From: Bacillota bacterium
Lineage (GTDB): Bacteria > Bacillota > UBA5301 > JAMCQP01
Assembly (NCBI GenBank): GCA_023381695.1
Contig: JAMCQP010000039.1
Location: 2,151-66,150, forward strand
Length of the DNA: 64,000 nt
Reading direction: 5' to 3'
How positions within the stretch are numbered: the first letter of the stretch is position 1; the number at the start of each line of letters is the position of its first letter. Under the pieces are notes generated by a model. The model ran no database searches. It saw nothing but the letters and a program-made list of their open reading frames with translations, and was not told the DNA's origin. Shown here piece after piece: positions 1,628-46,689 of the stretch. The position numbers and the translations under genes are program-made.

Positions 1628-2251
1628 GTGAAAAAAATGGGTGGCAGGCTGTCGGACAGCCAGATCGTACAACTCCAAAGCTTTTTTCATGGCCGGAACG
1701 AGGTGGAACTGGCATTTCTCTTTGGTTCGCAGGCACGGGGGACCGCCGGCCCTCTGAGTGACGTGGACATAGCGGTTTTAATCGCCGGCAACGCCGCAGG
1801 GGAAGGCCCGCTTAGCTATCGTTTAATCCTGATGGGTGATCTCGCCACATTGCTCCACAGAGACGACATTGATGTGGTAATGTTAAATCAGGCGTCGCCA
1901 TTGCTCAAGAACCGGGTAGCCAGAGATGGCCGGGTACTTTTCTGCAAAGATACGGGTATCAGGTGTGCAAAAGGTAGCGGGCATGGCGGGATTTCGCAAT
2001 GTCCTGGTTCACCAGTATCTGCAGGTCGATCTCAAAGAAGTCTACCAGATCCTGCAGAGCGGTTTGGACGATTTTCGCAGCTTCGCCGGTTATATAACAG
2101 ATTTTCTCGCCTCAAACAAGTGGTAACTAACTTCGATGGAATGGTGGAAAGACTATGCGGGCAGAATTATTGTCGGTGGGAACGGAGTTGCTTCTCGGCC
2201 AGATCGTGGACACCAACGCGGCCTACCTTGCGCAAAAACTGGCTCAGGTAG
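1628..2251 (+). CDS. MNT-type nucleotidyltransferase (antitoxin-like). Only the N-terminal ~100 aa are recognisable; the rest is read-through into cinA.
   Basis: FLFGSQARG...SDVDIAVL is a Pol-beta-type NTase motif, and ...ASPLLKNRVARDGRVLF follows it. Likely start is ATG 1637 after AGGTGA. The C-terminal half has no family signal and overlaps cinA out of frame. Confidence 0.55.
   Translation: MKKMGGRLSDSQIVQLQSFFHGRNEVELAFLFGSQARGTAGPLSDVDIAVLIAGNAAGEGPLSYRLILMGDLATLLHRDDIDVVMLNQASPLLKNRVARDGRVLFCKDTGIRCAKGSGHGGISQCPGSPVSAGRSQRSLPDPAERFGRFSQLRRLYNRFSRLKQVVTNFDGMVERLCGQNYCRWERSCFSARSWTPTRPTLRKNWLR
1926..2126 (+). pseudogene. HepT (DUF86/HEPN) toxin remnant, C-terminal half only
   Basis: 66-aa ORF carrying GFRNVLVHQYLQVD (HEPN Rx4H motif). 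The usual N-terminal ~60 aa are missing. It is out of frame with, and nested in, the MNT ORF. Confidence 0.6.
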
Positions 2252-5017: not shown

Positions 5018-5258
5018 TCGCTGAAAAAATTCTTTGCACCAAAAGGATCTGATCTCTTTCTGGCGAATAAAAACTACGCCAGTGTTAGATCCTTCTGCCA
5101 TCATGCCTTCATTTAAAGCCCGACTTATACTCGAACCCGGCATCAACACATATGCTCCTGAGTTTGGTCACCTTCAACGCCCGGATACCTCTTCCAAAGG
5201 CGTAATCAGATCAACCAATTGAATATCGGAATATTGAAGATCGAAATGGAGAAGACAT

Positions 5259-5891
5259 ATGAAACCCAGAAGCGCTGCCCGATGGTCGACAGCAGGGGAT
5301 AGCCATGAAAATTCCGCCGTGCGTACCTTTATTTCCGTGCCGATCCCGGTTGTGGTGCAAAAGCAGGCGCGCCTGATGCAGGGGCGTTTGCAAGCCGCAG
5401 GAGGGGATGTAAAGTGGGTGGATCCTTCCCAGATCCACATCACTCTCAAATTTCTTGGCGACGTGGATTTTACGCTGCCAGACAAGCTGGGGGAGGCAGT
5501 GGCGGCGGCAATCCATGACGAGCCTCCTTTTTCACTGCGTTTGTCCGGGCTGGGAACCTTCCCCCTGGCAGGGGTTCCGCGGGTGATCTGGGCTGCCATT
5601 GACGGCGATCTGCGCCGTCTGCTTTCCCTTCAAAAGAAGGTGGAGGCGGCGGTGGTGGAACAGGGGTTTCCCCCGGAAGAAAGACCTTTTTCGCCCCATG
5701 TGACGCTGGGAAGGGTGCGTTCGCCTCGAAACACCGCCCAATTGAAAGAACTGTTGAAAGGGATGGAAAGCACTGAATTGGGCCAGTTTGCGGTGACGGA
5801 GGTGCGGGTGATGAAAAGCCAGTTGGCGCCTTCCGGTCCCCATTATACGATTCTTCACAGCGCAGGATTGCCCGTGCCACAAAGTTCTTGA
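5259..5891 (+). CDS. thpR: RNA 2',3'-cyclic phosphodiesterase (2H family, ThpR/LigT)
   Basis: Two HxT motifs (HITLKFLG and HVTLGR). GGAG lies 9 nt upstream of ATG 5259. Confidence 0.8.
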   Translation: MKPRSAARWSTAGDSHENSAVRTFISVPIPVVVQKQARLMQGRLQAAGGDVKWVDPSQIHITLKFLGDVDFTLPDKLGEAVAAAIHDEPPFSLRLSGLGTFPLAGVPRVIWAAIDGDLRRLLSLQKKVEAAVVEQGFPPEERPFSPHVTLGRVRSPRNTAQLKELLKGMESTELGQFAVTEVRVMKSQLAPSGPHYTILHSAGLPVPQSS

Positions 5892-5916
5892 CAACGGTGG
5901 CATACTCTGGTAAAAT
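5888..5916 (+). promoter_or_regulatory. recA sigma-A promoter (TTGACA-17-TAAAAT)
   Basis: TTGACA 5888-5893, 17-nt spacer, TAAAAT 5911-5916. The -35 box contains the thpR stop codon. Confidence 0.6.
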
Positions 5917-5922
5917 TCTTAT

Positions 5923-5936
5923 AGAACATCAGTTTG
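5923..5936 (+). promoter_or_regulatory. LexA (Cheo/DinR) box candidate, AGAACATCAGTTTG
   Basis: GAAC-N4-GTTT (one mismatch to GAAC-N4-GTTC) lies 7 nt downstream of the recA -10. Confidence 0.55.
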
Positions 5937-5955
5937 GAAGCGCAACGTAAATGCG

Positions 5956-7020
5956 ATGCGAGTTGAGAGGATGATCGCTTTGATGCAAGAAAAGCAGAAG
6001 GCCCTGGAAATGGCCGTCAGCCAGATTGAAAAGCAGTTCGGCAAAGGTTCGATCATGAAACTCGGGCAAGGGGCCGAGCAGTTGCAAGTGGAGGTCATTT
6101 CCACGGGCGCGATTACCCTGGATCTGGCCCTGGGGGTCGGTGGCGTTCCGCGGGGAAGGGTTATCGAGATCTTCGGGCCGGAGTCCTCGGGAAAGACCAC
6201 CGTGGCCTTGCATATCATCGCCGAGGCCCAGAAAGAGGGTGGGGTAGCCGCTTTTATTGACGCGGAGCATGCCTTTTCGGCCGAATACTCTCGTAATCTT
6301 GGCGTGGACCTGGACAACCTGTTGATCTCGCAGCCGGATACCGGCGAGCAGGCCCTGGAGATCGCCGAAGCCCTGGTGCGCAGCGGGGCGATCGATGTGG
6401 TCGTGGTGGACTCCGTAGCCGCCCTGGTGCCGCGCGCGGAACTGGAAGGCGAGATGGGGGATGCCCATGTGGGACTGCAGGCGCGATTGATGTCTCAGGC
6501 CCTGCGCAAGCTCACCGGCGCCATAGGAAAGTCCCGCACGTGTGCAATCTTTATCAACCAGTTGCGTGAGAAGGTCGGAGTGATGTTCGGCAACCCGGAG
6601 ACAACTCCCGGCGGCCGTGCCCTGAAGTTCTACGCCTCCGTGCGGCTGGATGTCCGCAAGACAGAAACTATCAAACAGGGCACGGACATGGTGGCTAACC
6701 GCACCAGGGTCAAGGTGGTAAAAAATAAGATCGCTCCGCCCTTCAAGGAAGCCGAGTTTGACATTGTCTACGGCGAGGGAATTTCCATTGCCGGCGCGAT
6801 CCTGGACATGGCCGCCGACCTGGATATCGTAAATAAGAGCGGCGCCTGGTACTCTTACGGTGACACCAGAATCGGGCAGGGGCGCGAAAACGCCAAAGAC
6901 TTTCTCAAGCAAAATCCCGATCTCGCCGCAGAGATTGAGGCCAGGATTCGGGAGAAGGTGGGCCTCCCGCTGGCCAAAAAGCCCATCAGGTCGGACGCCG
7001 CCGGTGAAAACGCTTCATGA
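5956..7020 (+). CDS. recA: Recombinase RecA
   Basis: [22 protein letters not shown] and Walker [10 protein letters not shown]. The true start may be ATG 5971 or 5983. Confidence 0.97.
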
Positions 7021-7481
7021 ACGAGCGGGAACGGGGGTTTGCCATCGCCCTGGAGATGATCTCCCGGCGCCGGCGCAGCGAGTACGAGGTCCGGGCGCGC
7101 TTCAGCCAGCGGGGGATTCCACCCCAGACCGGCGAGGAGATCATCTCCGCGCTGCGGGAGATGGGATACCTCAACGACCGGGCCTTCGCCGAAGCGTGGG
7201 TACGGGATCGGAAAATAACCAAACCCATGGGGCGTTACCGGCTGGCCAGGGAGCTGTCGGAAAAAGGCATCGAGCGTTCTTTGATTGATGAGGTGCTGGA
7301 TGGAGAGGAAGGCTGCCAGGATGAGCTGGCCCTGGCATTGGCTCTGGCCCGGACCCGGCTGACCAGCATCAAGGGGCGCCCCCCGGAAGTGGTGCAGCGG
7401 CGGATCGGCCAATTCCTCCTGAGGCGCGGGTTTTCGCAGGAGACCGCCGCCAGAGTAGCCTGGCAACTTACCCGTGATTAG
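7017..7481 (+). CDS. recX: RecA regulator RecX
   Basis: 154 aa, ATGA overlap with the recA stop, RecX-like helical repeats (RRRSEYEVR..., [13 protein letters not shown]). Confidence 0.85.
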
Positions 7482-7502
7482 CGCAAAATAGCACACAATC
7501 TT

Positions 7503-7571
7503 GAGGGTTTCGGTCTGCCGCCGTGGGATTCCCCCTCCAATAATCCCACAAGCCAGCAGGCTGAAACCCTC
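7503..7571. terminator. Nested hairpin between convergent recX and the permease gene
   Basis: GAGGGTTTC (7503-7511) pairs with GAAACCCTC (7563-7571). An inner hairpin GTGGGATT/AATCCCAC spans 7523-7549. Confidence 0.4.
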
Positions 7572-7628
7572 TTTTAGCTGAAACCCTCTTTTAGCTGAAA
7601 CTCTCTTTTAGCTGAAACCCTCCATTTA
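7561..7628. repeat. Four tandem copies of a 17-bp unit CTGAAACCCTCTTTTAG
   Basis: Copies at 7561-7577 and 7578-7594 are identical, 7595-7611 has 1 mismatch, and 7612-7628 has a degenerate 3' end. Confidence 0.9.
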
Positions 7629-7660
7629 TCAGGCAGCCATGATCTTCAGGGCATGGATCC

Positions 7661-9076
7661 TCAAGGCACGCGCAAAACCGTGAAGAACAGCCAGCTGATC
7701 AAGGCGCCGACCACCGACATGGAAAGGCCCCAGATCATCATTCCACGGAAGAGCTTGGTCTTGTCGGTTTCCGGTGCGGCACCGGCAATGAATACCGCTC
7801 CGGTGGTGGATAACGGGCTCATGTCGGTAAGATGGCCGGCTACCACAATCGTGGAGAGCAAGGCCATCAGGTCGCCGCCTCCGATCTTGGAAAGCAGCAC
7901 CGGCGCCAGAGGCAAGAAGGCTGGCAGGATCACGCCGGAGGTGCTGGCATAGGCCGAGATCAGGGCCGCGATAAAACCAATCACCAGGGTAGCTGTAAAC
8001 GGCGTAGAGAAACGAGCCATAATCGTGGCAAAAAGATCCATGCCACCGATCTTGCTCATCAACTGAACCAGCACGGTGACGCCGGTAACCATCATAATGG
8101 TGCCCCAGGGCATGCCCTTGATGCCCTTTGCCTCATCGGCGGCTCCCAGCAGGGAAAGGATCGCGCCGATCAGGAACGCCCCCAGGCCTACCTCCAGCTT
8201 GAAAAAGATCACTCCGAGGATCAGGACGGCGATCCCGGCGAGGGTGAGAATCTGATTGAAATTGAAGGGTTCCACCTGAATGTTTTTCAGACTCTCGATC
8301 TGGCTGGCGTCCTTCTTTTTCCAGAGCTTGAGACCGCCAAAGAGGAAATAAGCCAGGGCGGCAACCGCTATATGGGTAACCAGCATGTTCATCCATAGAG
8401 TTATGCCGACCGCATCGAGATTCGGAAAATTCATCTTGCTGAGTATGCCACGGGCAATGACGCCGGTGGGCGCGATGGGCGACATGGCCCCCGCCTGGGC
8501 GCCGTCGCCGACCACCAGGGCCATCAACAATGGGGAAATGCCGACCTCTTGCGCTAAAAGCATGGCGGGCGGGGCAAGGAGGGCGGCGATGGAAATATGT
8601 CCGGGTCCGATGGATGCCAGGACAAAAGCCAGGAAAAAGAGAACGATTGGCAGGAGGGCTACCTTGCCCCGGACCGCTTTGATACTATACTTGGTAACCT
8701 TTTCCAGAGTACCATTCACGTTGGCCAGTGAGAACAGATAGGTCACACCGGCCAGCATCAAGAAGAGGTTCACCGGGTAGCCGGAAATGATCTCCTTGAC
8801 CTTGACCCCGCCCAGGTAGTACCCTACCACCAGGGATAAGCCAAGGGCCATGGTCCCGATGTTCAAAGGTGTTGCAGAACTGACGATAACGGCAATTGTC
8901 AGAGCGATCAGGGAGATGACGGGCACATACTGGGGCGTGGTCGCCCTTTGGGCGAGGATATAGACCAGCAACGCCGTAACGAGAATGATCACGAGCCCCA
9001 CAACGGGCCATTGTGTTTTTTTCACAGCCGGCATCGGTTGCCCCTGCATCGGATTGGGGTTTTTTGCCTGTTCCAT
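7661..9076 (-). CDS. Polytopic anion/organic-acid permease (ion-transporter superfamily, SLC13/CitMHS/ArsB-like)
   Basis: 471 aa, about 12 or more hydrophobic segments, internal duplication-like architecture. Last gene of the sigma-54 operon. Confidence 0.6.
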   Translation of the reverse strand: MEQAKNPNPMQGQPMPAVKKTQWPVVGLVIILVTALLVYILAQRATTPQYVPVISLIALTIAVIVSSATPLNIGTMALGLSLVVGYYLGGVKVKEIISGYPVNLFLMLAGVTYLFSLANVNGTLEKVTKYSIKAVRGKVALLPIVLFFLAFVLASIGPGHISIAALLAPPAMLLAQEVGISPLLMALVVGDGAQAGAMSPIAPTGVIARGILSKMNFPNLDAVGITLWMNMLVTHIAVAALAYFLFGGLKLWKKKDASQIESLKNIQVEPFNFNQILTLAGIAVLILGVIFFKLEVGLGAFLIGAILSLLGAADEAKGIKGMPWGTIMMVTGVTVLVQLMSKIGGMDLFATIMARFSTPFTATLVIGFIAALISAYASTSGVILPAFLPLAPVLLSKIGGGDLMALLSTIVVAGHLTDMSPLSTTGAVFIAGAAPETDKTKLFRGMMIWGLSMSVVGALISWLFFTVLRVP

Positions 9077-36219: not shown

Positions 36220-37596
36220 TCAAAGTTGTTCAATCGTCGCCCGAGAGGTTGTCAAACGCCAACTCAGATGGCCGTTGGGGTCCGCCAGGGTGAGAGTGAC
36301 GGCTCCTTGTGCCACCATGTCCAATAGTTCGTATCCCGACACCCGAGTGGCGGCCGGGTTCACCCCAATGCTCAACGCCGAGCAGAAGAGAGCCTGCTTT
36401 GACCCGATCACCTTTTTGATGAGCTCTTCTCCCTCGGTTGCCTCAATGGCGGCAACCTTTCCGGCTTCGATGCCGAGGCGAAGGTTTTTGACGGGATGCC
36501 CCGCATAAACGAAGTCATCCGGGGCAAACGTTCCATGCGCACTGGCGGGTTTTGCAGGCAAGCGTACCTCCCCGGCGGGCAAGAATCCCACCTGCCAGCC
36601 TTCCTCCCTGGTTCCACGGGGAAACCTGGTGATCACCCTGGGGGGTTCATTGATGGTGAATTGCACTTCCGTCCCACCACGCCCGCGCACCGTTAACTCT
36701 TCCCCCACTTTGAAACGGGAAACATGCTGTTCAGCCTCGCTCTCCAGTTCTTCCGGGCTAACCGCCATCGCCTTCCAAAAGGTGTCGTAAAGCTTGGTAT
36801 AGTCCGTGCTTGTCAGCGCCCCCAGTGCCGGAGTAGGAAAACCGATCCACACCGTACGGCCGGTACGATTCCGGAGGGCTTGCAAGGCTTGCCATTCCCG
36901 TCGACGCCAGGCATCAAACTGGTCTTCCGGTATATTTTGAAAGACCGTCTCATCTGGAAATGGGTCAAGAGAGATCCGGCAGTCAATAAGGCTGTAGAGC
37001 TCTTTTTTCAGGAAGGGTTCCTCCTCAAGAACTTTCGCCGGAAGCTCACCAAGCGCCCTGGCGATTAACTCATCGCTTGTCACTTCCAGGATAGCGTCTG
37101 CTTTTGCATTCCAGACCTCAAAGACGATAGCTTCCAAAAACTCCATCTGATGGGGACCGCCCTCAACCAGCACTCTTTCCCCAGGCTCGATCATCAAAGT
37201 TTCATTGACGACGGTATGCGCCACCTTTCGAAAATCCACCCCCAGAACGTTTTGGCGGCGCCATTTCAAAAGATCGTCCTCCGCTGCTTGTTTGGCGATG
37301 GTTTCCACGTCGCTGTACATTCCGAGGCCGAGACCAAGCAGAAAGGTTTTGGCCTTGGCGCGATAATACTTCTCCGCTGCTCCCGATCTTGGTGACTCCT
37401 TCACCATTTCGATGAACCCATTTCTCTCAAGCTCTTTTACATGGTAATAGATTTTGGCATGGGGCTCGCCTAATATCGAAGCGAGCTGACCGACAGTAGC
37501 CTGATCCCTCACAAGAATGTCCAGTAACCGGATGCGTTTTTCGTCAGCCATTGCCTTGATCCGCCGGGGGTCTTCCACTAATATGAAGTCTTGCAT
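36220..37596 (-). CDS. ArsR-type winged-HTH fused to an M29 (AmpS/PepS-like) aminopeptidase-like domain
   Basis: The N-terminal KAMADEKRIRLLDILV..QATVGQLASILGEPHAKIYYHVKELE is ArsR-like. The remaining ~350 aa resemble thermophilic metalloprotease M29; catalytic residues were not verified. Confidence 0.5.
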   Translation of the reverse strand: MQDFILVEDPRRIKAMADEKRIRLLDILVRDQATVGQLASILGEPHAKIYYHVKELERNGFIEMVKESPRSGAAEKYYRAKAKTFLLGLGLGMYSDVETIAKQAAEDDLLKWRRQNVLGVDFRKVAHTVVNETLMIEPGERVLVEGGPHQMEFLEAIVFEVWNAKADAILEVTSDELIARALGELPAKVLEEEPFLKKELYSLIDCRISLDPFPDETVFQNIPEDQFDAWRRREWQALQALRNRTGRTVWIGFPTPALGALTSTDYTKLYDTFWKAMAVSPEELESEAEQHVSRFKVGEELTVRGRGGTEVQFTINEPPRVITRFPRGTREEGWQVGFLPAGEVRLPAKPASAHGTFAPDDFVYAGHPVKNLRLGIEAGKVAAIEATEGEELIKKVIGSKQALFCSALSIGVNPAATRVSGYELLDMVAQGAVTLTLADPNGHLSWRLTTSRATIEQL

Positions 37597-37602
37597 CCGA
37601 AT

Positions 37603-38838
37603 TCACTCCCTGGAAACTTCAAAGGTGGTCTTATTTAGTTCTGCGTAGGAAGGCGATTTCCTTCCTAAAATTCCTACTAGGCAAACGATGACTCCGATGC
37701 TCCCCATTATATTGTGCGCGCTAAATAGAGCCGCTAATGGGCCTGCAACAGCCAGACCCACGATACCGCCCAGCCGCCCCAGGGCGTTAATCGCGGCAAA
37801 AACGCGTCCCCGCATTTCAAGAGGAACGTGTGTCAATAGCAAAGTGTTAATTGGTATATCACTCAGCCCATCGGCGGCACCGATGAACCAGGCCCAAAAC
37901 AATACCACTCCGTAGCCTGGTCTTGTGAAGTAGAGAATTGAGGCGAGGCCCAGGCCGGTTATGGAGTTAAGAATCAACTTTCCCGGCTTCAATTTCTGGC
38001 CGAATTGCCCCACCAGGGCGGTGGAAAGGATTAAACCGGCGGATAAGACGGCTTCCACCAATCCGAATTGTTGGGGAGAGACCCGTAACCCATTCCGAAG
38101 GTAATCCACCATGAGGATGCTGCTGCTACCCATTACTAAAATAACGGGCGTATAGATTCCAAAGATGAACCGTAACTTCGGCTCATTCCAAATCGCCGAG
38201 GCCCCGCTGACAAGCTGGTTACGAAAGCTGGAACTGCGCCGCTCCTGCTTTTGTTCGGGAATAGGAAGAAAAAGGATTGACAACGAGGAAGCCAAAAATG
38301 TGGCTGCGTCCACCAGAAAGGCGCTTTTTACCCCCCATAGCCCAACAATCAAGCCTCCTGTGGCCGGCCCAAGAATCATCATCCCTTGCGTGGTCACCTG
38401 GATCAGGCCAACAGCGGCCATGTAGTTCTCCTTGCCCGCCATCTCGGGCATGACGGCCGAACGGGCGGGGTTGAAAACTGTCCCAAGCATGCCCAGGGCG
38501 AAGGCCAGCAGGTACAAATATGTGAGCGAGGGTGCCCAGATTACCGCGGCGATGAGCGTAGCGCGCAACAAATCGGCAACCACCATGATTGTTTTACGGT
38601 TAAACCGATCTACTAACACGCCTGCAACGGGGCCGAATATAATAGCCGGGATCGCCTGGCAAAAAGCGATGATGCTTAAGGCTACCGGCGAACTGGTCTT
38701 TTCGGTAACGAGGAGTAACAGGGCGATACGGGCGACCCCGTCACCAAAGTTGGAAATCGCCTGGGCAAACCACATGGTGATGAAGGTTGGCTTTCTGAAC
38801 AAGGGCAGATATCCCGCTTTCTGGATCATAGTGGACAA
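37603..38838 (-). CDS. MFS transporter
   Basis: 411 aa, 12 predicted TM segments, GVLVDRFNRK loop 2-3 motif. Confidence 0.8.
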   Translation of the reverse strand: MSTMIQKAGYLPLFRKPTFITMWFAQAISNFGDGVARIALLLLVTEKTSSPVALSIIAFCQAIPAIIFGPVAGVLVDRFNRKTIMVVADLLRATLIAAVIWAPSLTYLYLLAFALGMLGTVFNPARSAVMPEMAGKENYMAAVGLIQVTTQGMMILGPATGGLIVGLWGVKSAFLVDAATFLASSLSILFLPIPEQKQERRSSSFRNQLVSGASAIWNEPKLRFIFGIYTPVILVMGSSSILMVDYLRNGLRVSPQQFGLVEAVLSAGLILSTALVGQFGQKLKPGKLILNSITGLGLASILYFTRPGYGVVLFWAWFIGAADGLSDIPINTLLLTHVPLEMRGRVFAAINALGRLGGIVGLAVAGPLAALFSAHNIMGSIGVIVCLVGILGRKSPSYAELNKTTFEVSRE

Positions 38839-38897
38839 GGGATTCCCTCCTCGCTAAAAAAATTTTTCATATACCAGGTCATATGCCAATATATGCG

Positions 38898-39503
38898 TTA
38901 CCCGCACAGATCTTTTGCGTAGATCTGGGCTAATTTTTTTTTGGCAATGGTAAGCCGCGACTTCACCGTGTTTACAGGAATCATGGTTACCCGGGAAATT
39001 TCCCGAAGGGACATCTGTTCAAAGTAACGGAAATAGACAATCTCGCGATAACATTTCGCAAGCTGCTCCAATATCTCTGTCATATAAAGGCGCTGGATCG
39101 CTTCAGAAAGGCCTAACACATCATTTTGTGGCAGTGTCTCTTTCAAATAGATCAATTTTTGAGGTTCAACCAGCATATAACTAAATTTGTTCTGAAACCT
39201 GTAGGTGTCAATCAATTTGTTTCGCAAAATTCGCCTGAGCCAGAAAGTAAAGCTCGCGGCGTCCCCTTGAAATTTTCCGGCATGCTGAAAAACAGCCATG
39301 AGCGTATCCTGGACGATTTCTTCGACGACAAAGTGATCAGATGTAAGGTTAGTTGCGTACTTAAAGATTTGTGGCCTGAACATTTCTACGAATTCTTCAA
39401 AGGCGTTCAAGTCCCCATTGGTAATTTGATTCAATAACCTCTCGAAATCTTTCGTGGCTTCGAACGGTTGAGCGGTTCTGGCAAGGTCAGGAAAATTTTT
39501 CAT
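38898..39503 (-). CDS. ECF-type RNA polymerase sigma-70 family factor
   Basis: Region 2 (IFKYATNLT....EEIVQDTLMAVF) and region 4 HTH (MSLREISRVTMIPVNTVKSRL). The sequence is AT-richer than its flanks. Confidence 0.8.
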   Translation of the reverse strand: MKNFPDLARTAQPFEATKDFERLLNQITNGDLNAFEEFVEMFRPQIFKYATNLTSDHFVVEEIVQDTLMAVFQHAGKFQGDAASFTFWLRRILRNKLIDTYRFQNKFSYMLVEPQKLIYLKETLPQNDVLGLSEAIQRLYMTEILEQLAKCYREIVYFRYFEQMSLREISRVTMIPVNTVKSRLTIAKKKLAQIYAKDLCG

Positions 39504-39521
39504 AGCAACCGCCTCCTTTGG

Positions 39522-39550
39522 TTGAACCTACGAAAAACTTTACATAAAAT
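39522..39550 (+). promoter_or_regulatory. Candidate sigma-A promoter (TTGAAC-17-TAAAAT) facing the MFS/peptide operon
   Basis: TTGAAC 39522-39527, 17-nt spacer, TAAAAT 39545-39550. Confidence 0.4.
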
Positions 39551-39681
39551 GTGCAGATCCTTTTGCCGTTCTTAACCGTCTTAATTAGTGAGTATACATT
39601 TTAATAAAATCTTCTGGGTGTTAAAGTGTTTTCCTGCTAATTTATCATCTGTCAAAAAAATTTTTTTAGCCAAACAATGAG

Positions 39682-40947
39682 GTGAAGGCGCTAATGGCCC
39701 TGATGATGATGGTGCGTTGGTTGATACGTAGGGAGAATAACCGTTTTTTTCTCCTGTGGGTGAGCAAGGCATTATCTGAAGCTATTGATTGGATTCATTA
39801 TTTCGCTCTCATCTTTTATACCCACGCTCTGACTGGCTCCATGCTGGCGACGGGAATGGCGTTGGTTTTCGGTTCAATTCCTTCGTTACTTTTAAGCCAT
39901 GGGGGAAGTGTATTAGCCAGCCGGCGAAATTGTAAATTTATTATTATGGTAAGCAATTTTTTGAGTTTCTTTCTGGCTTTGTTTATTGGTTTGAGGGCTT
40001 TCCATGGTTCACCCACGGTTTATGAAATTTACGTGGTGGCATTTCTGATGGGGGGTTGTAAGGCGTTCTTTCGATTGGTATTGGCTATAAGCATATCAAT
40101 CGTCGTTCCCGCCAATGAGTTGAATATAGCACACTCCCTAGCCAGACTGGCTTCCAACATCACCGAGATCGCCGGACCTCTGGTTGGGGGGGCGGTGATT
40201 GCTTTGTACGGGGCACCCATGGCTTTCGTTGCCAATGGGGTGTTATTCTTGGCGGCCGCCGTTACAGGAGCATTTATTAGCATCCCGCACCAGATCGACT
40301 TTTCTGCCCGCGGTAATTTATTGAATTTAAGAGAAAACCTTAAATACATAAAGAAAAACCAAACAGTGCGGCCAATAATCTTTGTGATGATCATGGTGGT
40401 GTTTTTTGCCCGACCTATGCCCATGGTCCTAAAAGTTTTGTTACATGAGTATTACCAGATTGGAAGCTTGGGTTTGGGTTTTCTGGTTGGCGCCAGCGCC
40501 ATTGGAACTCTTCTGACCACAAGTTACCTTGTAGCCAGGCCGACATGGTTGGGGCGAACGTATATGTTCCTGGGTTTTCCGGCTGTGTCAGGAATTATCC
40601 TTGTACTTGTTGGATGGATTCAAAACTTTTATGTGGCGATAGGGTTGATGTTCTTAGAAGGACTCGTTGGAGGCCTGGGCGAGATAACGTTCAGCATACT
40701 GATTCAGCTTGCGGTGCCAGATCAAATGCAGAGAAGGGTTTTCAGGTCCTTTTCCACGGTGACGGCGATGGTTACTCCATTATCGTTTGCGGTTGCGGGT
40801 GTTGCCCTGGAAAAAGTTGGGGTCCAGACGATCTTGAGTATCGGCGGTTTCGCTCTTGTAGCGGGAGGATTGACATTGTTTAAGAATGCCTTGCAAACTA
40901 TGTGGCGAGGAGGAATCAGTTCCCTTATTTCCACGAGCAAGAGCTAA
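39682..40947 (+). CDS. MFS transporter (EntS/MFS_3-like), putative exporter of the cluster
   Basis: 421 aa, 12 TM segments. ATG 39694 after GAGGTGA is an alternative start. Confidence 0.8.
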   Translation: MKALMALMMMVRWLIRRENNRFFLLWVSKALSEAIDWIHYFALIFYTHALTGSMLATGMALVFGSIPSLLLSHGGSVLASRRNCKFIIMVSNFLSFFLALFIGLRAFHGSPTVYEIYVVAFLMGGCKAFFRLVLAISISIVVPANELNIAHSLARLASNITEIAGPLVGGAVIALYGAPMAFVANGVLFLAAAVTGAFISIPHQIDFSARGNLLNLRENLKYIKKNQTVRPIIFVMIMVVFFARPMPMVLKVLLHEYYQIGSLGLGFLVGASAIGTLLTTSYLVARPTWLGRTYMFLGFPAVSGIILVLVGWIQNFYVAIGLMFLEGLVGGLGEITFSILIQLAVPDQMQRRVFRSFSTVTAMVTPLSFAVAGVALEKVGVQTILSIGGFALVAGGLTLFKNALQTMWRGGISSLISTSKS

Positions 40948-41035
40948 ATAGATCTGGTAGAAATGCGCGTTTCATGTTTCATGCCATTTTTCCCGGAGGA
41001 GGGGAGAAATAATGGGGTGAGAAGGAGGTGAGAAC

Positions 41036-41119
41036 ATGAAGTATGCAAAGCCAGTGCTGCGGGAGGTAGTTGTCACGCTTACGGCGGATAAGTGGTTAAT
41101 CAGTATCAAGGCCGAATAA
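41036..41119 (+). CDS. 27-aa candidate RiPP precursor peptide MKYAKPVLREVVVTLTADKWLISIKAE
   Basis: AGGAGG (41023-41028) lies 7 nt before the ATG. TAA stop at 41117-41119. Located directly upstream of the rSAM/SPASM gene and too short for the ORF track. Confidence 0.6.
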   Translation: MKYAKPVLREVVVTLTADKWLISIKAE

Positions 41120-41155
41120 TAAGCCTGGAAAGCTCTTGAAATTCAGAGGTCAAGG

Positions 41156-41178
41156 ATCCCCTCTCCTCCGGGGATTTT
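41156..41178 (+). terminator. Weak hairpin plus T-run after the peptide ORF (possible attenuator)
   Basis: ATCCCC (41156-41161) pairs with GGGGAT (41170-41175), with an 8-nt loop, followed by TTT. Confidence 0.3.
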
Positions 41179-41235
41179 CAGCAGTCAAGCGCGCAAAGTT
41201 TCTGTTTTGTTGCTCAAGAAAGGGGAGCGTTTTGG

Positions 41236-42348
41236 ATGATAGATAAAAAAAAGCTGTCGGTTGTCCGGTGGGATATCACATCGAAATGTAACTTTAATTG
41301 CAGTCATTGCTATGCAAGCAGCCTGCATCGATCACAATCCTCCGACCTGTCGCTGGAAGAAGTTCAAGTCGGGATCAAAAACCTCGGAGATCCGGGTGTC
41401 TCAACTGTAATGTTTTACGGAGGAGAGCCACTTTACAGGGACGATATTGTAAAAGTTGTCGAGGCCTGTACAGAGCAAGGCATTCAGACCTACATCACCA
41501 CCAACGGCTATCTGCTGGACAAGAAATGCGCGGCTCTTGTTCAAGCGGGGCTGAGGGGATTTGGTGTGAGCTTGGACGGGGCGACGGAAGATGTCTATGC
41601 GTATATCAGAGGAGGCAACAGATATGAACAGGTCATTGCCAATTTTAAGGAATTATCGAAACTGCACGTCGCTTCGAGGGTGATAGTGATGGTCCTTATG
41701 AAGGAAAACGCCGCTGACGCCTCCAAAATGATCAGACTTGCGCGCGATCTGGATGCCACAGGGGTGATTTACGAAGGACTTGCCGTTGACGGCAACGCCC
41801 TGGTTTCCAAAAGAAGCACGCCGTTGGAACCGGGGGAATACGTGCGGGTTTTCGAGAGTATCGTGGAAGAGACGCTTCGAGTGGGATTTCCAGTGGAAGC
41901 CATCAATCTGCGAATGGCTCCCCCTAAAGTAGTCCAGCACTTGAACAGCAAATACAACGTCGGGTTGGATGTGGAGCAAGGAACGTGTCGGGCAGGCATG
42001 AACAGCGTGTTTATAGATTCCCGGGGATTGGTCTTCCCATGCAGAGGGGTGCATCCCAGGATGACCATCAAGACCGGATTCAAATTAAAAGGGCTAAGCG
42101 TAGTGCAAAACACCCTTCACGATATTCTTCGCTCCGATGAATTTTCAAGTTTCTTCATGCTGGGGGATATCCGAAAGCCCTCAAACGACCTGGTGGGATG
42201 CAGAGGTTGTTCCCATTTGTTTCATGATTGCCACCCCTGCCCGATTGCGTTTGCCACTCAGCAAAGCGCGCATGTGGAGGGGTGCATCAATTACCCGCTG
42301 GGCGCCATATGCCAGGCTTCAAGCGAATCAGGCTTGAACATAGCTTGA
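41236..42348 (+). CDS. Radical SAM enzyme with C-terminal SPASM-type auxiliary-cluster domain
   Basis: C18-N-F-N-C22-S-H-C25, GGEPL, CRAGMNSVFIDSRGLVFPC (Gx4C), CRGCSHLFHDCHPC, and two further C-terminal Cys. Confidence 0.9.
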   Translation: MIDKKKLSVVRWDITSKCNFNCSHCYASSLHRSQSSDLSLEEVQVGIKNLGDPGVSTVMFYGGEPLYRDDIVKVVEACTEQGIQTYITTNGYLLDKKCAALVQAGLRGFGVSLDGATEDVYAYIRGGNRYEQVIANFKELSKLHVASRVIVMVLMKENAADASKMIRLARDLDATGVIYEGLAVDGNALVSKRSTPLEPGEYVRVFESIVEETLRVGFPVEAINLRMAPPKVVQHLNSKYNVGLDVEQGTCRAGMNSVFIDSRGLVFPCRGVHPRMTIKTGFKLKGLSVVQNTLHDILRSDEFSSFFMLGDIRKPSNDLVGCRGCSHLFHDCHPCPIAFATQQSAHVEGCINYPLGAICQASSESGLNIA

Positions 42349-42386
42349 ACTTATTCCAAAATCATGGTTCAAGGGAGGAGAGCATC

Positions 42387-42665
42387 ATGGATCTTCACGA
42401 CAAACCCCAAAAGCTTGCCATGGTTTACGCTCGTCGCCAACAGGATGGTTATGGGCTTTTCAACACTGAAACAGCGCGGTTTTACATCATAAACGAGATC
42501 GGTTACGAGGTGTGGGAAAGATGCACGGGAAGCAATACGGTGCAACAGATAGCCCAGGCCTTGTTCGAGATCTTGTTGGATCCACCTGAGCCCGATGCTG
42601 TGGAAAAGGATGTCCTGGAAATATTGGATCAGATGCATCAAAACGGACTGGTATCCGTGGCCTGA
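42387..42665 (+). CDS. PqqD-family protein (stand-alone RiPP recognition element)
   Basis: 92 aa. ...GYGLFNTETARFYIINEIGYEVWERCTGSNTVQQIAQAL.......VEKDVLEILDQMHQNGLV fits the PqqD pattern. AGGGAGGAG SD. Confidence 0.8.
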   Translation: MDLHDKPQKLAMVYARRQQDGYGLFNTETARFYIINEIGYEVWERCTGSNTVQQIAQALFEILLDPPEPDAVEKDVLEILDQMHQNGLVSVA

Positions 42666-42678
42666 GAGGGGTATTTTC

Positions 42679-44046
42679 ATGGCGTCTATAACCATTGTCA
42701 ATTCAGCCTTTCCCTCCAGGCGGCCGTATTTTCCCATCGGCTCCCTGATCGTCGCTGCTTCGATTGAACATGCGGGGTACCGGGTTAATTTCCGTGACTA
42801 TCAGCTTGCCACCGGGGAAAATTACGCGTCGCCAACCGCATTTGCAAAATTTCTCGTGGAATGTGGCTCGGAAATCGTGGGGATTACCGTCTTCGCCAAT
42901 ACGTTACCAACCGTGTTGTTGGGCATCCAGCTCCTAAAAGAGCGATCGCCCGACGTCAAGGTCGTTCTTGGAGGGCCGGGGGTATCCGGGCTTTCGGAGA
43001 GGATTATGGCGTTATCGCCGGTTGACGTGGTGGCCAGAGGCGAAGGCGAGTATACCGCGCCGCGGGTTGTAAGAGCATTCCTTGGAAACGAAGAGTTCTC
43101 TAGCATATCCGGAATAACGTACAGGCAGGGTTGGGACGTCATTAGCAACCCGGATTCTCCCCGGGCAAAAAACCTGGATCTTCTTCCATTTCCTGGTTAC
43201 AACCTGGTCAATCTGGTGGATTACGGCAATGAAGTGGGCATCATAACCAGCCGCGGATGTCCTTACCAATGTTCATTCTGCGCCAAGCCAATCTGGGAAC
43301 ATGGCGTCTCTTTCCGGACGATCCCCAACGTGATTTCGGAGTTATCTGCTCTCAAGGGCACAATTAGAAAACTTTACATTTCCGACGATTCCTTTGTCAG
43401 CGTGAGAGAGAGAGTCCTCCAGTTTTGCAGCGATTATCTGGGAAGCGGGATCGCCACCGAATGGGAGTGTACTGGCCGAGTGGGGCTGGTCGATGACACA
43501 TTGCTGTCCTTGATGGCCGCGGCTGGTTGCACGGACATCTTCTTCGGAATCGAGTCGGGTTCTAACCGAATATTGAGCAGAATTTCCAAGAAATTCGTGA
43601 TCGAAGATGCAAAACGGGATTTATTGCTTGCCTCCCAAAAGATCCGGCGCGTGCACGTATCGTTTATCTGGGGGTTTCCGTTTGAGGATCTGGATGACTT
43701 TCAGAGGACGATTTATTTCATCCTGGAAAACACGGCCAGGAATCCTTTCAACCCGGTGATGACGCTTGCCACCCCGTTTATTTCTTCGCCGCTATACAAC
43801 GAATTCAAGGACAGGCTCGTCTTCCTTCCGGACAACCATTATAACGGGTCAACCCTCGGGCGGGGAGAAACTCTGGAAAAGTACCCCGAGATGCTTGATT
43901 TCGTGAAAAGACACCCGGATGTGTTCCCATCCTTTTTATACTTTGATCACGCTGATTTTGGAGAGAAACGTGATATTGTGGACAGAATCATCGCCAACCA
44001 AAAAATTGGGGAGGGATCGAGACATGGCGGACGTGACAATCGTTAA
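42679..44046 (+). CDS. B12-binding-domain radical SAM enzyme (class B), paralogue 1
   Basis: N-terminal Rossmann-like cobalamin domain (VVLGGPGVS), rSAM motif SRGCPYQCSFC. Confidence 0.85.
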   Translation: MASITIVNSAFPSRRPYFPIGSLIVAASIEHAGYRVNFRDYQLATGENYASPTAFAKFLVECGSEIVGITVFANTLPTVLLGIQLLKERSPDVKVVLGGPGVSGLSERIMALSPVDVVARGEGEYTAPRVVRAFLGNEEFSSISGITYRQGWDVISNPDSPRAKNLDLLPFPGYNLVNLVDYGNEVGIITSRGCPYQCSFCAKPIWEHGVSFRTIPNVISELSALKGTIRKLYISDDSFVSVRERVLQFCSDYLGSGIATEWECTGRVGLVDDTLLSLMAAAGCTDIFFGIESGSNRILSRISKKFVIEDAKRDLLLASQKIRRVHVSFIWGFPFEDLDDFQRTIYFILENTARNPFNPVMTLATPFISSPLYNEFKDRLVFLPDNHYNGSTLGRGETLEKYPEMLDFVKRHPDVFPSFLYFDHADFGEKRDIVDRIIANQKIGEGSRHGGRDNR

Positions 44047-45376
44047 CAGCGGCTTGTTGCTTCACCGGACAGACATCCCCACCGGACCCTTGATCGTTGT
44101 TTCGGTGCTGGAAAAGGCTGGCTTTGTCGTGGAATTCCGCGATTATCAAGGTGTGGCGATTCCCAAACGCCCGTCCCCCCGGACGTTCAAGGCCTTTCTT
44201 GACGATTGCGCTGATCTTCTCGGAATTTCGGTCATGAGCAATTCACTCCCCACCGTCCTGGGCGCCGTCAGGTTGTTGAAAGAGGAGAAACCCTGGATCA
44301 AGGTGTTTCTGGGCGGGCCGGGCTGCCGGGAGTTGGCGTTTGACATTCTGCAAAAATTCCCCGTTGACGCGATTGTTTTGGGCGAGGGGGAGATTACGGC
44401 CCCCGAACTGGTCATGGCCCTCAAAAATGATTCGGATCTGCGACGGGTGGCTGGAATCGCGTATAAAGAAGAAGATCAGGTGATCTTTACAAAAGAACGC
44501 CCCTTGATTGACGACCTGGACTCGATTCCGTTCCCAGCCTACCACCATATCAAACTGGAATCGTATAACAATGTTGCCACAGTTATGACCGCTCGCGGGT
44601 GCCCATTTAGATGCAAGTTTTGCAGCGCGCACTCGGTTCCCCAGCGAAAGATGCGATACCGCAGCATCCCCAGTATTATGGAGGAATTGTCGCTTCTAGC
44701 GCCACAAGCCCGATATGTTGCGTTCCTGGACGATACGTTCATCCTTAGCAAGGCGAGAGCATTGGAAATCGCCCGCAACGTCCAGAATAGATTCGGCTTG
44801 CGATATACATGCAACGCGAAGATCTCATTGATGGACGACGATTGGCTGAAAGCTCTTGCGGATACCGATAATTTTCTGGTTTTCTACGGCGTGGAGTCCG
44901 GGTCAAACAGAGTCTTGGAACGGATAGGCAAGGGACACACCTTGGAGGAGGCGCGGAAGGTAATCAGAAAAACTGCTGACTCCATCGAGAAAGTCCGGAC
45001 GTCTTACATCTGGGGATACCCGTTTGAGACGCTGGAAGACTTCTTCGACACGGCCATGTCCTTGAGGCAAGACATGCAGCAACCAAATGTACTCAGCCAG
45101 ATGTCGCTGTTGTCGCCACTTCCCGGCACCGAGTTCACGGAGGAGTTTAAAGACATTATGTCGTTTTCCCCGGCGATTCAATCAAGGGCCGGTGGGCTGC
45201 CGGTGAACGAAAATATATCAGACTACCCTGAGCTGATAGAACTGATCACCGGGAATCCTGGCTTGTTTTCTTCCTTTTATTACTTTGCCCATGAGGGCTT
45301 CGAGTCCAAATTTAATGCCATTAAAAGGATTGACTGGATTTACGACGATCAAAAGAAAAGAGCATACGGTTATTAG
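44024..45376 (+). CDS. B12-binding-domain radical SAM enzyme (class B), paralogue 2
   Basis: MADVTIVNSG... parallels MASITIVNSA... of paralogue 1. VFLGGPGC, ARGCPFRCKFC. 23-nt overlap with the upstream gene. Confidence 0.85.
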   Translation: MADVTIVNSGLLLHRTDIPTGPLIVVSVLEKAGFVVEFRDYQGVAIPKRPSPRTFKAFLDDCADLLGISVMSNSLPTVLGAVRLLKEEKPWIKVFLGGPGCRELAFDILQKFPVDAIVLGEGEITAPELVMALKNDSDLRRVAGIAYKEEDQVIFTKERPLIDDLDSIPFPAYHHIKLESYNNVATVMTARGCPFRCKFCSAHSVPQRKMRYRSIPSIMEELSLLAPQARYVAFLDDTFILSKARALEIARNVQNRFGLRYTCNAKISLMDDDWLKALADTDNFLVFYGVESGSNRVLERIGKGHTLEEARKVIRKTADSIEKVRTSYIWGYPFETLEDFFDTAMSLRQDMQQPNVLSQMSLLSPLPGTEFTEEFKDIMSFSPAIQSRAGGLPVNENISDYPELIELITGNPGLFSSFYYFAHEGFESKFNAIKRIDWIYDDQKKRAYGY

Positions 45377-45395
45377 GATGAGAGGGGGGAGGTAG

Positions 45396-46283
45396 GTGAA
45401 CCTGAGTGTTTTCCAGGCGATTGCACGATTCTTTGGATCCTTGTTGATACATCCCATATGGGGAAGGATGGTGGGCGCGATCGCGGTCGCGGCGCCGTTG
45501 TCGCTCCTTGGGTGGCCGCGCATGTGGCACCTGTTCCAGCAACCCGCTCTTTTCGGCATCCTGGCATTGCCCACGGTGTATTTGATGTTGTTTTTCGGGG
45601 CGCTGACTCATGAGCTGGGGCATATCGTCGTCCTGCGGCTGATGGGCTGCAAAAGCACGCTGCAAATCATGAAACATTCACATTCTCGCCTGATCCCCTT
45701 CAACATGAAGACGTCCATTGCCGGTGACTCTCCCGCCTATTCCACTTCCAACCGGTTGTTGGCACGGGGACTGGCGGGATTCGGGGCCAACTTGACCACG
45801 GATGCAATCTTAATGGTGTTGAGCGTAGCGATGCACAATCCCTGGTTGGCTTTGTTCGCGGCCGTCCAGGGCTTCTCCGGGCATGGGGCGACTTCCTGGT
45901 CCAGGTTGGATGGGGACACTGACGTGAGAACTATCCGCGAGGCACTGGCGTTCAAGGACTCTGTCTCGACCCGCGGAAGTGAGTCGGATGGCCAGCTAGA
46001 CCTGGATTTAATTGTGGACCTGGAAATATCGCAAAATGTTGTCACCCCGTATTGGGTAATGGTGGCGGGTATTGCCGCGGCGGATGCAGATTGTGAGGGC
46101 GAATTTCTGTCTTTCAACGCCGGTAATGCCCTTTTGATGATTTTGCCGCGCGCACAAACCGGTAGGCATGTGGCGCATGTCCGTGGCAGAAAAGTCGGGC
46201 CGGTCTCTCTGACTACGAAGACTGGTTATAACGAAAGATACCCTGCGCCCAAGGAAGGCCCGAGGGGTGCTGTGGGGATCTAA
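45396..46283 (+). CDS. Membrane zinc metalloprotease-like protein (M50/site-2-protease-like HExxH + LDG) with unknown C-terminal domain
   Basis: Hydrophobic N-terminal half with LTHELGHIVV and SRLDGD. GGGGGAGG SD before GTG 45396. Confidence 0.6.
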   Translation: MNLSVFQAIARFFGSLLIHPIWGRMVGAIAVAAPLSLLGWPRMWHLFQQPALFGILALPTVYLMLFFGALTHELGHIVVLRLMGCKSTLQIMKHSHSRLIPFNMKTSIAGDSPAYSTSNRLLARGLAGFGANLTTDAILMVLSVAMHNPWLALFAAVQGFSGHGATSWSRLDGDTDVRTIREALAFKDSVSTRGSESDGQLDLDLIVDLEISQNVVTPYWVMVAGIAAADADCEGEFLSFNAGNALLMILPRAQTGRHVAHVRGRKVGPVSLTTKTGYNERYPAPKEGPRGAVGI

Positions 46284-46544: not shown

Positions 46545-46599
46545 CACCGGATGGGGCGGTCGCCATGGCGATCGTACTGTTTTTGGGCGGTGTGTTTTT
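46545..46599 (+). terminator. Leader hairpin 1 with U-run
   Basis: CACCG (46545-46549) pairs with CGGTG (46588-46592), enclosing a GGTCGCC/GGCGATC hairpin, followed by TGTTTTTG. Confidence 0.35.
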
Positions 46600-46610
46600 G
46601 TATCTCTGTT

Positions 46611-46636
46611 AACGTCCTACACGGGGGCGTTTTTTT
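46611..46636 (+). terminator. Leader hairpin 2, intrinsic-terminator-like
   Basis: AACGTCC...GGGCGTT stem followed by TTTTTT, 54 nt upstream of the hutP-like start. Confidence 0.5.
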
Positions 46637-46689
46637 CATAGCGTTTTTTACTAAATCTTTACCTGAATTGTATGTGAGGGGGTGAGAGG

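Follow-up and report, generated by a model that had tools for sequence, protein, structure and literature searches.

What product is encoded by a gene cluster in which three radical S-adenosylmethionine (SAM) enzymes stand beside an open reading frame (ORF) of only 27 codons? The question is raised by a stretch of 64,000 nucleotides from a Bacillota bacterium (contig JAMCQP010000039.1), hereafter the window, in which the original prediction, made from the sequence alone, had seen a cluster for a peptide made by ribosomes and post-translationally modified (RiPP) of no named class. All ORFs listed there are present at their coordinates, and Pfam profile matches agree with the domain families, the M50 assignment discussed below apart. 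We propose, with a probability of roughly three in four, that the cluster in the window belongs to a RiPP gene cluster family not described so far, one whose peptide is methylated, otherwise modified and exported. Observed directly were the gene content, the synteny over loci of bacteria and loci labelled archaeal, the peptide's conservation and its status as a coding sequence, and the cofactor motifs; together with the fact that no enzyme reaches a curated family at its cut-off, these observations support the reading of an unclassified RiPP cluster.

A conserved precursor peptide and its cassette

The cassette comprises six genes, which encode a SPASM-type radical SAM enzyme, a PqqD-family protein, two paralogous B12-binding radical SAM enzymes (A and B), a membrane protein of about 290 residues with an HExGH motif, and an MFS transporter. 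It recurs in at least 10 divergent loci, which we reached through relatives of the SPASM enzyme and then through the ~290-aa protein and B12 paralogue B (Table 1). The small ORF is present at every cassette locus that covers the region, and 12 distinct peptide sequences of 26-29 residues came from 10 such loci. A block of 22 residues, from a Tyr to the residue after a Ser, aligns free of gaps as Y-x-[KR]-P-x3-E-x6-A-D-K-[W/I]-L-x-S-x, with Y, [KR]-P, E, A-D-K, L and S invariant. The window and the Theionarchaea-labelled copy are identical at 15 of 22 block residues, and the block is conserved as well as or better than the cassette enzymes, which are 31-53% identical to those of the window. Among nine precursor copies, synonymous divergence is near saturation (pS 0.35-1.07) versus a nonsynonymous divergence (pN) of 0.02-0.41, giving pN/pS ratios of 0.05-0.56. 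A GGAGGTGA ribosome-binding site lies 5-8 nt 5' of the start in all nine precursor genes examined; the gene of locus L175 has the Shine-Dalgarno variant GGGAGGTGA. The peptide motif was absent from the roughly 160 unrelated SPASM loci of our negative control set.

Given that the block contains no insertions or deletions, that pN is far below pS, that the GGAGGTGA site is common to the genes and that the motif is exclusive to the cassette, the small ORF is, judged by these sequence signatures, a translated gene under purifying selection. The original prediction had staked itself on homologous clusters keeping a conserved small ORF, and the 12 peptides, their shared block, the Shine-Dalgarno site and the purifying selection all go its way. 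The location of the gene is not fixed: it lies between the radical SAM and PqqD genes in L002, upstream of PqqD in L093 and L175, and upstream of the radical SAM gene elsewhere. It has thus moved between positions, yet it was never lost from the cassette. In the NCBI record of this metagenome-assembled genome (MAG), the accessions of the neighbouring genes (MCL4515137-149) run consecutively without a slot for the 27-codon ORF, so that the ORF is unannotated in the public record.

Two types of peptide can be told apart. Trp-type peptides carry a TADKWL[IL]S core in which K-W is invariant (10/10), and the Ile-type peptides of L093 and L175 read KADKILMSI. The peptide had been described as free of Cys, which is true of the window copy but not in general. 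No Cys occurs in the conserved block of the window, L002, L091, L094 and L093 peptides, and several orthologues, the remaining ones, carry a single Cys at a non-conserved position, that of L175 in the variable tail. We regard the N-terminal YxKPxL as a putative leader bound by a RiPP recognition element (RRE) and the invariant A-D-K-W-L-x-S as the putative core. The PqqD gene is present in all cassettes at a conserved position. Since the best NCBIfam matches of its product, below cut-off, are lasso peptide chaperones, and since YxxPxL follows lasso logic, this protein presumably binds the Y-x-K-P-x-L-x-E strand as a leader. We rejected a lasso-like cleavage rule (Thr at -2): the spacing from the Pro differs, and Thr is replaced by Lys in the Ile-type peptides. 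As peptide motifs, ADKWL, DKWLIS and TADKW were not found in the literature searched.

Just 3' of the window's precursor gene, a hairpin stem forms in both the minimum free energy and the centroid folds; the fold of the whole intergenic region has a z-score of +1.19, no better than shuffled sequence, and a terminator scan did not report the hairpin. It is possibly a leaky terminator, on weak grounds, and an attenuator at this site was rejected for want of statistical support (z = +1.19). Three precursor copies on archaeal-labelled contigs are followed by T-tracts.

A word-indexed search of 5.8 billion proteins returned, for the SPASM enzyme, one copy at 99% identity and three relatives at 34-38%, with the next match at 27%; the count of four is a lower bound, since the search missed orthologues to which the B12 enzyme and the ~290-aa protein led afterwards. 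Among 185,579 species-representative genomes, a genome-collection scan found one true SPASM orthologue (L008), the other matches being unrelated SPASM enzymes. A metagenome scan with the radical SAM alignment gave only distant SPASM enzymes and no new cassette among the matches listed; it used back-translated radical SAM patterns, which are too generic, and serves only as the negative control for the peptide motif.

Table 1. Features of the window, followed by the other cassette loci and their precursor peptides
Feature	Position	Strand	Basis
Precursor peptide gene, 27 codons: MKYAKPVLREVVVTLTADKWLISIKAE	41036-41119	+	Conservation at cassette loci, purifying selection
Extended Shine-Dalgarno AAGGAGGTGA, 4 nt 5' of precursor start codon	41022-41031	+	
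Hairpin just 3' of precursor gene, 8-9 bp stem GGAUCCCC/GGGGAUUU, then UUUUC	41153-41182	+	RNA folding
Radical SAM enzyme, SPASM-type C-terminal domain	41236-42348	+	PF04055, 102 bits
Stand-alone PqqD-family peptide chaperone (RRE), 92 aa	42387-42665	+	PF05402, 51.1 bits vs cut-off 23.4
B12-binding radical SAM enzyme, paralogue A; putative peptide C-methyltransferase	42679-44046	+	PF02310 and PF04055
B12-binding radical SAM enzyme, paralogue B; putative peptide C-methyltransferase	44024-45376	+	PF02310 and PF04055
Membrane protein, 295 aa, HExGH in predicted transmembrane helix, C-terminal beta domain; putative leader peptidase	45396-46283	+	
MFS_3/EntS-like transporter; putative product exporter	39694-40947	+	Pfam (MFS_1, MFS_3), NCBIfam
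Extracytoplasmic function (ECF)-type sigma factor, divergent; most AT-rich gene of the island	38898-39503	-	Sigma70_r2, r4_2; TIGR02937, 83 bits vs 43
Second MFS transporter, inside the island of low GC at third codon positions (GC3)	37603-38838	-	Pfam; GC3 0.61-0.62 (with aminopeptidase fusion)
HTH_20 (ArsR/HTH_20)-M29 (thermophilic) aminopeptidase fusion	36220-37596	-	Pfam; GC3 0.61-0.62 (with second MFS)
Terminator-like hairpin with T-run, 3' of last cassette gene	46611-46641	+	Terminator scan
Cassette locus L002-4; L002 peptide: MYVKPMVKEISIGITADKWLISLKEA			
Cassette locus L008, Clostridia MAG; peptide, GTG start: KYVKPSIKEISVCITADKWLLSLKQLAD			
Cassette locus L088/L089, Clostridium sp. 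19966; L088 peptide: MRYIKPMVKEISVCITADKWLLSLKNQ			
Cassette locus L090; peptide, start uncertain: KYIKPSIKEISVCITADKWLLSLKQVQAS			
Cassette locus L176; peptide: MKYAKPAVNEVAICITADKWLLSIKSQN			
Cassette locus L091/L092, 283-kb contig labelled Theionarchaea archaeon; L091 peptide: MYAKPRLEEITVRITADKWLISLPAVPY			
Cassette locus L094, 142-kb contig, proteins named Candidatus Methanofastidiosia archaeon; peptide copy 1: MYSKPKLEEVNVRITADKWLISLPEMQA; copy 2: MYAKPKLEEVNVRITADKWLISLPNYT			
Expanded cassette locus L093, six B12 enzymes; peptide: MVYEKPRLEVVEVRVKADKILMSIKAE			
Expanded cassette locus L175, five B12 enzymes; peptide, GTG start: TYERPTLNEVEINIKADKILMSIHVCN			

Predicted modification, leader removal and export

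The two B12-binding radical SAM enzymes of the original prediction are indeed paralogues, 36% identical, and match PF02310 at 58 and 47 bits (cut-off 32) and PF04055 at 49 and 76 bits (cut-off 29.5). By domain content both are class B (cobalamin-dependent) radical SAM enzymes, and CX3CX2C is found in 22 of the 22 B12 paralogues examined. In a tree, A and B form separate orthogroups, each spanning bacterial and archaeal-labelled loci, which places the duplication before the spread of the cassette; paralogue B is 48-53% identical to its orthologues, and the B side also takes in the third copies from the archaeal-labelled loci and all six from L093. The nearest curated family, ApyD (NF050148; 157-161 bits vs a cut-off of 750), methylates the C-beta of a peptide tyrosine (10.1101/2023.10.30.564719), and the nearest solved structure, 9CCB, is QCMT, the glutamine C-methyltransferase of methyl-coenzyme M reductase (PMC12931638). 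Since each of the two methylates an sp3 carbon of a peptidyl residue, the most economical prediction for the cassette's B12 enzymes is C-methylation. Two such enzymes are encoded in each of eight Trp-type loci (a third lies nearby in the two archaeal-labelled ones) and six and five in the Ile-type loci L093 and L175, a suggestive correlation in which enzyme number appears to track core type.

The two Ile-type loci (L093 1316-12473 and L175 2894-13449) form a sister subfamily on GC-rich contigs, with the rearranged order PqqD, three to four B12 enzymes, SPASM enzyme, one to three B12 enzymes, ~290-aa protein. In the archaeal-labelled loci (L091 1-5504 and 12675-14018; L094 10001-11344 and 18171-20671), the third B12 radical SAM gene lies on the opposite strand and is accompanied by GNAT acetyltransferase genes, between two of which the second precursor copy of L094 is found. 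Upstream in L091, a PqqD-fused SPASM enzyme and a radical SAM protein of 583 aa are possibly a second RiPP cluster. In L088 (12243-20867) the cassette is directly followed by cobalamin nucleotide-loop and salvage genes (His_Phos_1/CobC-like, CobU, CobS, CbiA-family amidase, CobD/CbiB, aminotransferase) and a BtuF/C/D-like transporter, which may fit the B12 demand of the cluster or be a coincidence.

In the SPASM enzyme, the CNFNCSHC sequence noted at residues 18-25 is present, and the Cys-rich C terminus is of the SPASM type, as had been supposed: an alignment of ten orthologues keeps an eight-ligand Cys/His pattern ([C/H]251-x12-G264-x4-C269, C322xxC325x6C332xxC335, C350, C359), which together with CxxxCxxC agrees in full with the signature CX9-15GX4C...CX2CX5-6CX2-3C...C. 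The SPASM profile PF13186 scores 20.5 bits, just below its cut-off of 21.5. An AlphaFold 2 (AF2) model (pTM 0.74, poor in the Cys-rich tail) matches SuiB and anSME best by TM-score (TMq 0.66) and BlsE first by E-value, and also matches SkfB, CteB and PqqE. All NCBIfam models stay below cut-off with all ten SPASM orthologues, and the best profile matches, which include MoaA, NirJ, GDGT-MAS and heme-pathway enzymes, cover the shared core only and lie far below the family cut-offs. Thus, with no NCBIfam cut-off reached, the three radical SAM enzymes do not group with a characterised non-RiPP family; such a grouping is what the original prediction had named as speaking against it. For the SPASM step we rank a cross-link first, possibly between Lys and Trp in the Trp-type peptides, because K and W are adjacent and the fold is SuiB-like. 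Epimerisation or another partner-free reaction, which we infer as the second choice, is favoured by the retention of the enzyme in the Ile-type loci and disfavoured by the lack of a spare conserved Cys. A cyclopropyl synthase was rejected, as the GYW motif of that group (PMC10878394) is not in the SPASM enzyme sequence.

The 295-aa protein had been assigned to the M50 site-2 proteases on the strength of HELGH and LDG. HELGH is present, but LDG is not conserved; orthologues have IHS, MNG and others in its place, and thus LDG is a coincidence of the window copy. HExGH is invariant in 13 of 13 members, inside a predicted helix (residues 50-82), and invariant residues in these members are H72, E73, G75, H76, R124, G128, N132, T166, D176, D188, Y219 and W220. 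N132 and D176 lie 44 residues apart, which does not fit the second M50 motif, NxxPxxxxDG (LDG). The window protein matches Peptidase_M50 at E 1.3e-3 and 18.6 bits (cut-off 27.2), and PF02163 is likewise sub-threshold in 7 of 8 orthologues, centred on HExGH, with a best E of 3.1e-4. Among 1.84 billion representative proteins, searched exhaustively with HMMER, the family has only 18 representatives, all at E <= 1e-10, with no bridge to M50 among them. A low-confidence AF2 model (pLDDT 61) predicts the HExGH helix, a beta hairpin, further helices and a C-terminal beta domain; Foldseek against the PDB gave only generic beta-sandwich matches to that C-terminal domain, and in a profile search against PDB sequences the best match was Ste24 at E 0.15. 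It is reasonable to see in the protein a membrane zinc peptidase of a small new family that is weakly M50-like, with membership of M50 itself not established.

The remaining gene of the cassette is an MFS transporter, as predicted, with a start more likely at ATG 39694 than at GTG 39682; ATG 39694 is the gene caller's choice (417 aa), with GAGG about 12 nt upstream. Its identity to the MFS proteins of the other cassettes is 31-36%, and such a transporter is present in every cassette whose contig extends beyond the ~290-aa gene. It closes the gene order in all of these loci except the window, where it stands upstream of the precursor.

Taken together, a perfect Shine-Dalgarno site would give the 27-residue peptide a high rate of translation, and the stand-alone PqqD-type chaperone would bind its N-terminal Y-x-K-P-x-L-x-E strand and present it to the radical SAM enzymes. 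The two anciently diverged B12 paralogues would each methylate unactivated side-chain or backbone carbons of the C-terminal half (T-A-D-K-W-L-I-S-I), acting on distinct carbons of the hydrophobic core, and the SPASM enzyme would carry out one radical step on A-D-K-x-L-x-S, either a carbon-carbon cross-link (Lys-Trp in the Trp type) or another hydrogen-abstraction reaction. Cleavage of the leader at the membrane would then fall to the HExGH protein, and export of the product to the MFS pump. We infer these chemical steps, the boundary of leader and core, the role of the protease and the biological function by analogy with characterised systems.

Known systems and competing readings

The claim that the cluster fits no named class stands up to comparison: for every class that could be tested, at least one testable trait of membership is missing. 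What the cluster has, by sequence, are the generic traits of an RRE-dependent RiPP system, namely a conserved, adjacent short precursor and a PqqD-like RRE. It resembles a hybrid in which a SPASM enzyme of the PqqD/PqqE or streptide type is joined to B12 C-methylation of the polytheonamide, clavusporin or ApyD type and to an epipeptide-like membrane protease. The streptide-type RaS-RiPPs (StrB/SuiB/AgaB, with a Lys-Trp cross-link; WgkB, WprB) are alike in their short precursor with Lys and Trp in the core, in their SPASM maturase and in their exporter; SuiB is among the top matches of the structural model by TM-score, and two of our loci (L008, L090) are apparently also under peptide quorum-sensing control. 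In contrast to that type, the RRE here is a protein of its own and not a part of the enzyme, Lys directly precedes Trp where streptide has a spacing, Trp varies in the wider family, and between two and six B12 radical SAM enzymes are found in addition. With the WgkB model (NF050035) the score is 78 bits versus a cut-off of 650, and SuiB is matched by sequence at E 4.6e-6 to 2e-10, a generic match. Sactipeptides and ranthipeptides were rightly excluded by the original prediction, as the core has no conserved Cys donors and models of the StsB, PapB and CteB type remain far below cut-off.

Lasso peptides (B1 RRE with a YxxPxL leader) share the leader Y-x-x-P-x-L and the RRE; neither a transglutaminase-like B2 protease nor an Asn-synthetase-like C cyclase was found by Pfam in 36.2-46.6 kb or among the genes called in the other loci, in keeping with the earlier statement that no lasso cyclase is present. 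Polytheonamide-type proteusins (PoyB/C) and clavusporins (MpcB/C) resemble the cluster in B12 enzymes expected to C-methylate unactivated carbons of hydrophobic residues. Unlike proteusins, the cluster has no NHLP/Nif11 leader, again as predicted, the whole precursor measuring 26-29 residues, and TIGR03975 scores 54 and 68 bits versus a cut-off of 282. In clavusporins, the motif of MpcB is CX7CX2C, a DUF5825 partner and an S9 peptidase are required, and export is by an MFS pump (PMC10849626); here the motif is CX3CX2C, and DUF5825 and S9 are absent from the window by Pfam. ApyD and QCMT, which both methylate a peptidyl sp3 carbon, are the nearest characterised relatives of both B12 paralogues. 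However, ApyD is a 645-aa protein with a fused RRE whose MNIO and P450 partners are not present in the cluster, QCMT acts on a folded protein, and the gene contexts of both are unrelated to the cassette. The B12/SPASM/RRE RiPP and archaeal RiPP literature that we searched holds only other systems (aminopyruvatides, biphenomycins, clavusporins, cyclopropyl synthases); large radical SAM RiPP atlases lay outside this search, and the family could sit in one of them as an uncharacterised node.

Several points weigh against the proposal of a methylated, otherwise modified and exported peptide. Its chemistry rests on analogy, and the product is predicted from the genes. B12 radical SAM enzymes also catalyse reactions other than methylation. 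By sequence, the SPASM enzyme resembles characterised enzymes in the generic radical SAM core only, which indicates no particular reaction. Because Trp is replaced by Ile in two loci that retain the SPASM enzyme (L093, L175), a Lys-Trp link does not define the family, and the streptide-like Lys-Trp cross-link suggested earlier is not general. The protease assignment, which draws on HExGH and on sub-threshold M50 matches, is weak. Finally, an antibiotic RiPP would not usually keep its core nearly identical between bacterial loci and loci labelled archaeal. Such sameness speaks for a constrained target or function; alternatively, the constraint could come from five proteins recognising one very short peptide.

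In a bolder form of the proposal, for which we would give slightly less than even odds, the cluster is the founding example of a new RiPP class, defined by a minimal precursor, a new SPASM clade, two to six site-specific B12 C-methyltransferases and a new family of intramembrane HExGH peptidases. Its core would be near-unchanged in Clostridia, in a Syntrophothermus-like Bacillota lineage and in MAGs labelled Theionarchaea and Methanofastidiosia, and would point to a conserved role in anaerobes, as an ionophore, a metallophore or a cofactor-like molecule, instead of a strain-specific antibiotic. The cluster lies within the known radical SAM-tailored RiPPs and will probably count as a new class once its product is known.

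The same cluster might instead use its SPASM enzyme as a peptide epimerase or other non-cross-linker, and yield a linear, heavily C-methylated and partly D-configured hydrophobic peptide, either a miniature membrane-active molecule like polytheonamide or the epipeptides or a clavusporin-like surfactant. We consider this unlikely, even though the core is short and hydrophobic, the SPASM enzyme is kept where Trp is lost, and the B12 enzymes rise to five or six in the subfamily with an all-aliphatic core. YydFGH also pairs a membrane metalloprotease with a radical SAM enzyme, and the epipeptide systems (YydF/YydG/YydH/YydIJ = EpeXEPAB) are alike as well in their small precursor, in a radical SAM enzyme with an auxiliary cluster, in a membrane protease of the HExxH type and in export. 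They differ in having an ABC transporter where the cassette has an MFS pump, the PqqD and B12 enzymes are found here, and the protease family is distinct. Moreover, the profile match to the YydG structures (8AI1-6; E 5e-5) is limited to residues 8-102, about 95 residues of generic core, and the eight conserved auxiliary Cys/His all fit cluster ligation, which would leave no obvious spare Cys as a hydrogen donor. Clavusporins do provide a precedent for poly-C-methylated peptides exported by an MFS pump (PMC10849626), but their CX7CX2C and DUF5825, which the cassette lacks, speak against this reading, as does the missing NHLP/Nif11 leader.

Still less probable is that the peptide is the precursor of a small cofactor or metallophore, like pyrroloquinoline quinone (PQQ) or mycofactocin, from which the D-K-W/I segment is excised and elaborated. 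The precursor is of the size of PqqA, and the arrangement, a stand-alone PqqD and a SPASM enzyme serving a peptide of about 25 residues, mirrors that of PqqA, PqqD and PqqE; the core stays near-invariant over bacterial and archaeal-labelled loci, the enzymes having diverged to 31-53% identity, and the hosts are all anaerobes. Against such a product, every complete cassette includes the MFS exporter, the cluster contains no cofactor-dependent dehydrogenase and no PqqB, PqqC, PqqF or MftD/E/F genes, the distribution is patchy, island-like and extremely rare, and two loci have an apparent quorum-sensing regulator pair. In addition, the SPASM enzyme scores far below cut-off with the PqqE (TIGR02109, 68.6 vs 381) and MftC (TIGR03962, 84 vs 265) models.

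A third alternative, in which the small ORF is there by chance and the substrate of the three radical SAM enzymes is a lipid, a cofactor or a protein, is very improbable: GDGT-MAS, MoaA and heme-pathway enzymes are among the best SPASM profile matches and the B12 relatives are named BchE- or YgiQ-like in sources, but those profile matches are the core-only, far sub-threshold ones described above, PqqD is always present, and the ORF is conserved and selected with a strong ribosome-binding site at every covered locus despite its shifting position.

If the proposal of a modified and exported peptide is correct, the cluster offers a compact system, with one 27-residue substrate, one chaperone and three radical enzymes, for asking how B12 methyltransferases divide sites among themselves, and natural variants with 2, 3, 5 and 6 B12 enzymes are built-in comparisons. 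It would also contribute a SPASM enzyme of uncatalogued chemistry, an unclassified family of membrane metallopeptidases, and a RiPP core that is unusual in being common to bacteria and archaea, by which cross-domain exchange of cassettes and the roles of peptides in anaerobic communities could be tested. If Clostridium sp. 19966 is a cultured isolate, as its record name suggests, a native producer is open to experiment. Surprise is tempered by the large number of uncharacterised radical SAM RiPP families; we regard this one as a better-than-average target for its conserved precursor in bacterial and archaeal-labelled loci, its variable dose of B12 enzymes and its new peptidase family.

The island, its regulators and its surroundings

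The AT-rich block reported between GC-richer flanks is real (GC 0.41-0.54 inside versus about 0.60 outside), but it begins earlier than noted, at 36220: GC3 is 0.50-0.67 for the genes from 36220 to 46283 and 0.77-0.79 for the genes on either side. The island therefore also contains the M29 aminopeptidase fusion and the second MFS, both on the strand of the sigma factor gene. These two genes are absent from the other cassette loci; they possibly serve accessory trimming and export or immunity, or are an unrelated portion of the same insertion, and their role is uncertain. In L002 the cassette is likewise AT-shifted relative to its host, with a GC of 0.36 versus 0.46 for the locus. Since the flanking genes differ at every locus and the AT shift is seen in both the window and L002, the data fit a mobile biosynthetic island. 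The L002 cassette (1035-7918) adjoins BREX-type defence genes (N6_N4 methyltransferase, PglY/BrxC-like ATPase), which together with its AT shift suggests that it lies in a variable genomic island.

A dedicated ECF sigma regulator had been counted as part of the cluster. A divergent ECF-type sigma factor gene is indeed present, but it does not belong to the conserved cassette: L008 and L090 have HTH_3+TPR regulators and L093 a response regulator with a GerE domain (LuxR-type). Because the regulators differ by locus, the sigma factor is at most a local acquisition, and possibly a local regulator. In L008 (543-2256) and L090 (223-1932), the divergent HTH_3+TPR regulator and a conserved 44-aa ORF precede the cassette. 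The ORF encodes a signal peptide, a SYAEEDEQN motif and a variable C-terminus (IFFITNVEDL or LLTITNISEW), and the pair looks like an RRNPP-type regulator with its pro-peptide, which would place the cluster under quorum-sensing control.

Beyond the last cassette gene, a gap of 400 bp leads to hutP and contains three overlapping or adjacent terminator-like hairpins with T-runs (46556-46641, plus strand). Rfam gave zero matches anywhere in the window, this gap included. One of the 90%-identity cluster mates of the window's HutP comes from Syntrophothermus sp.

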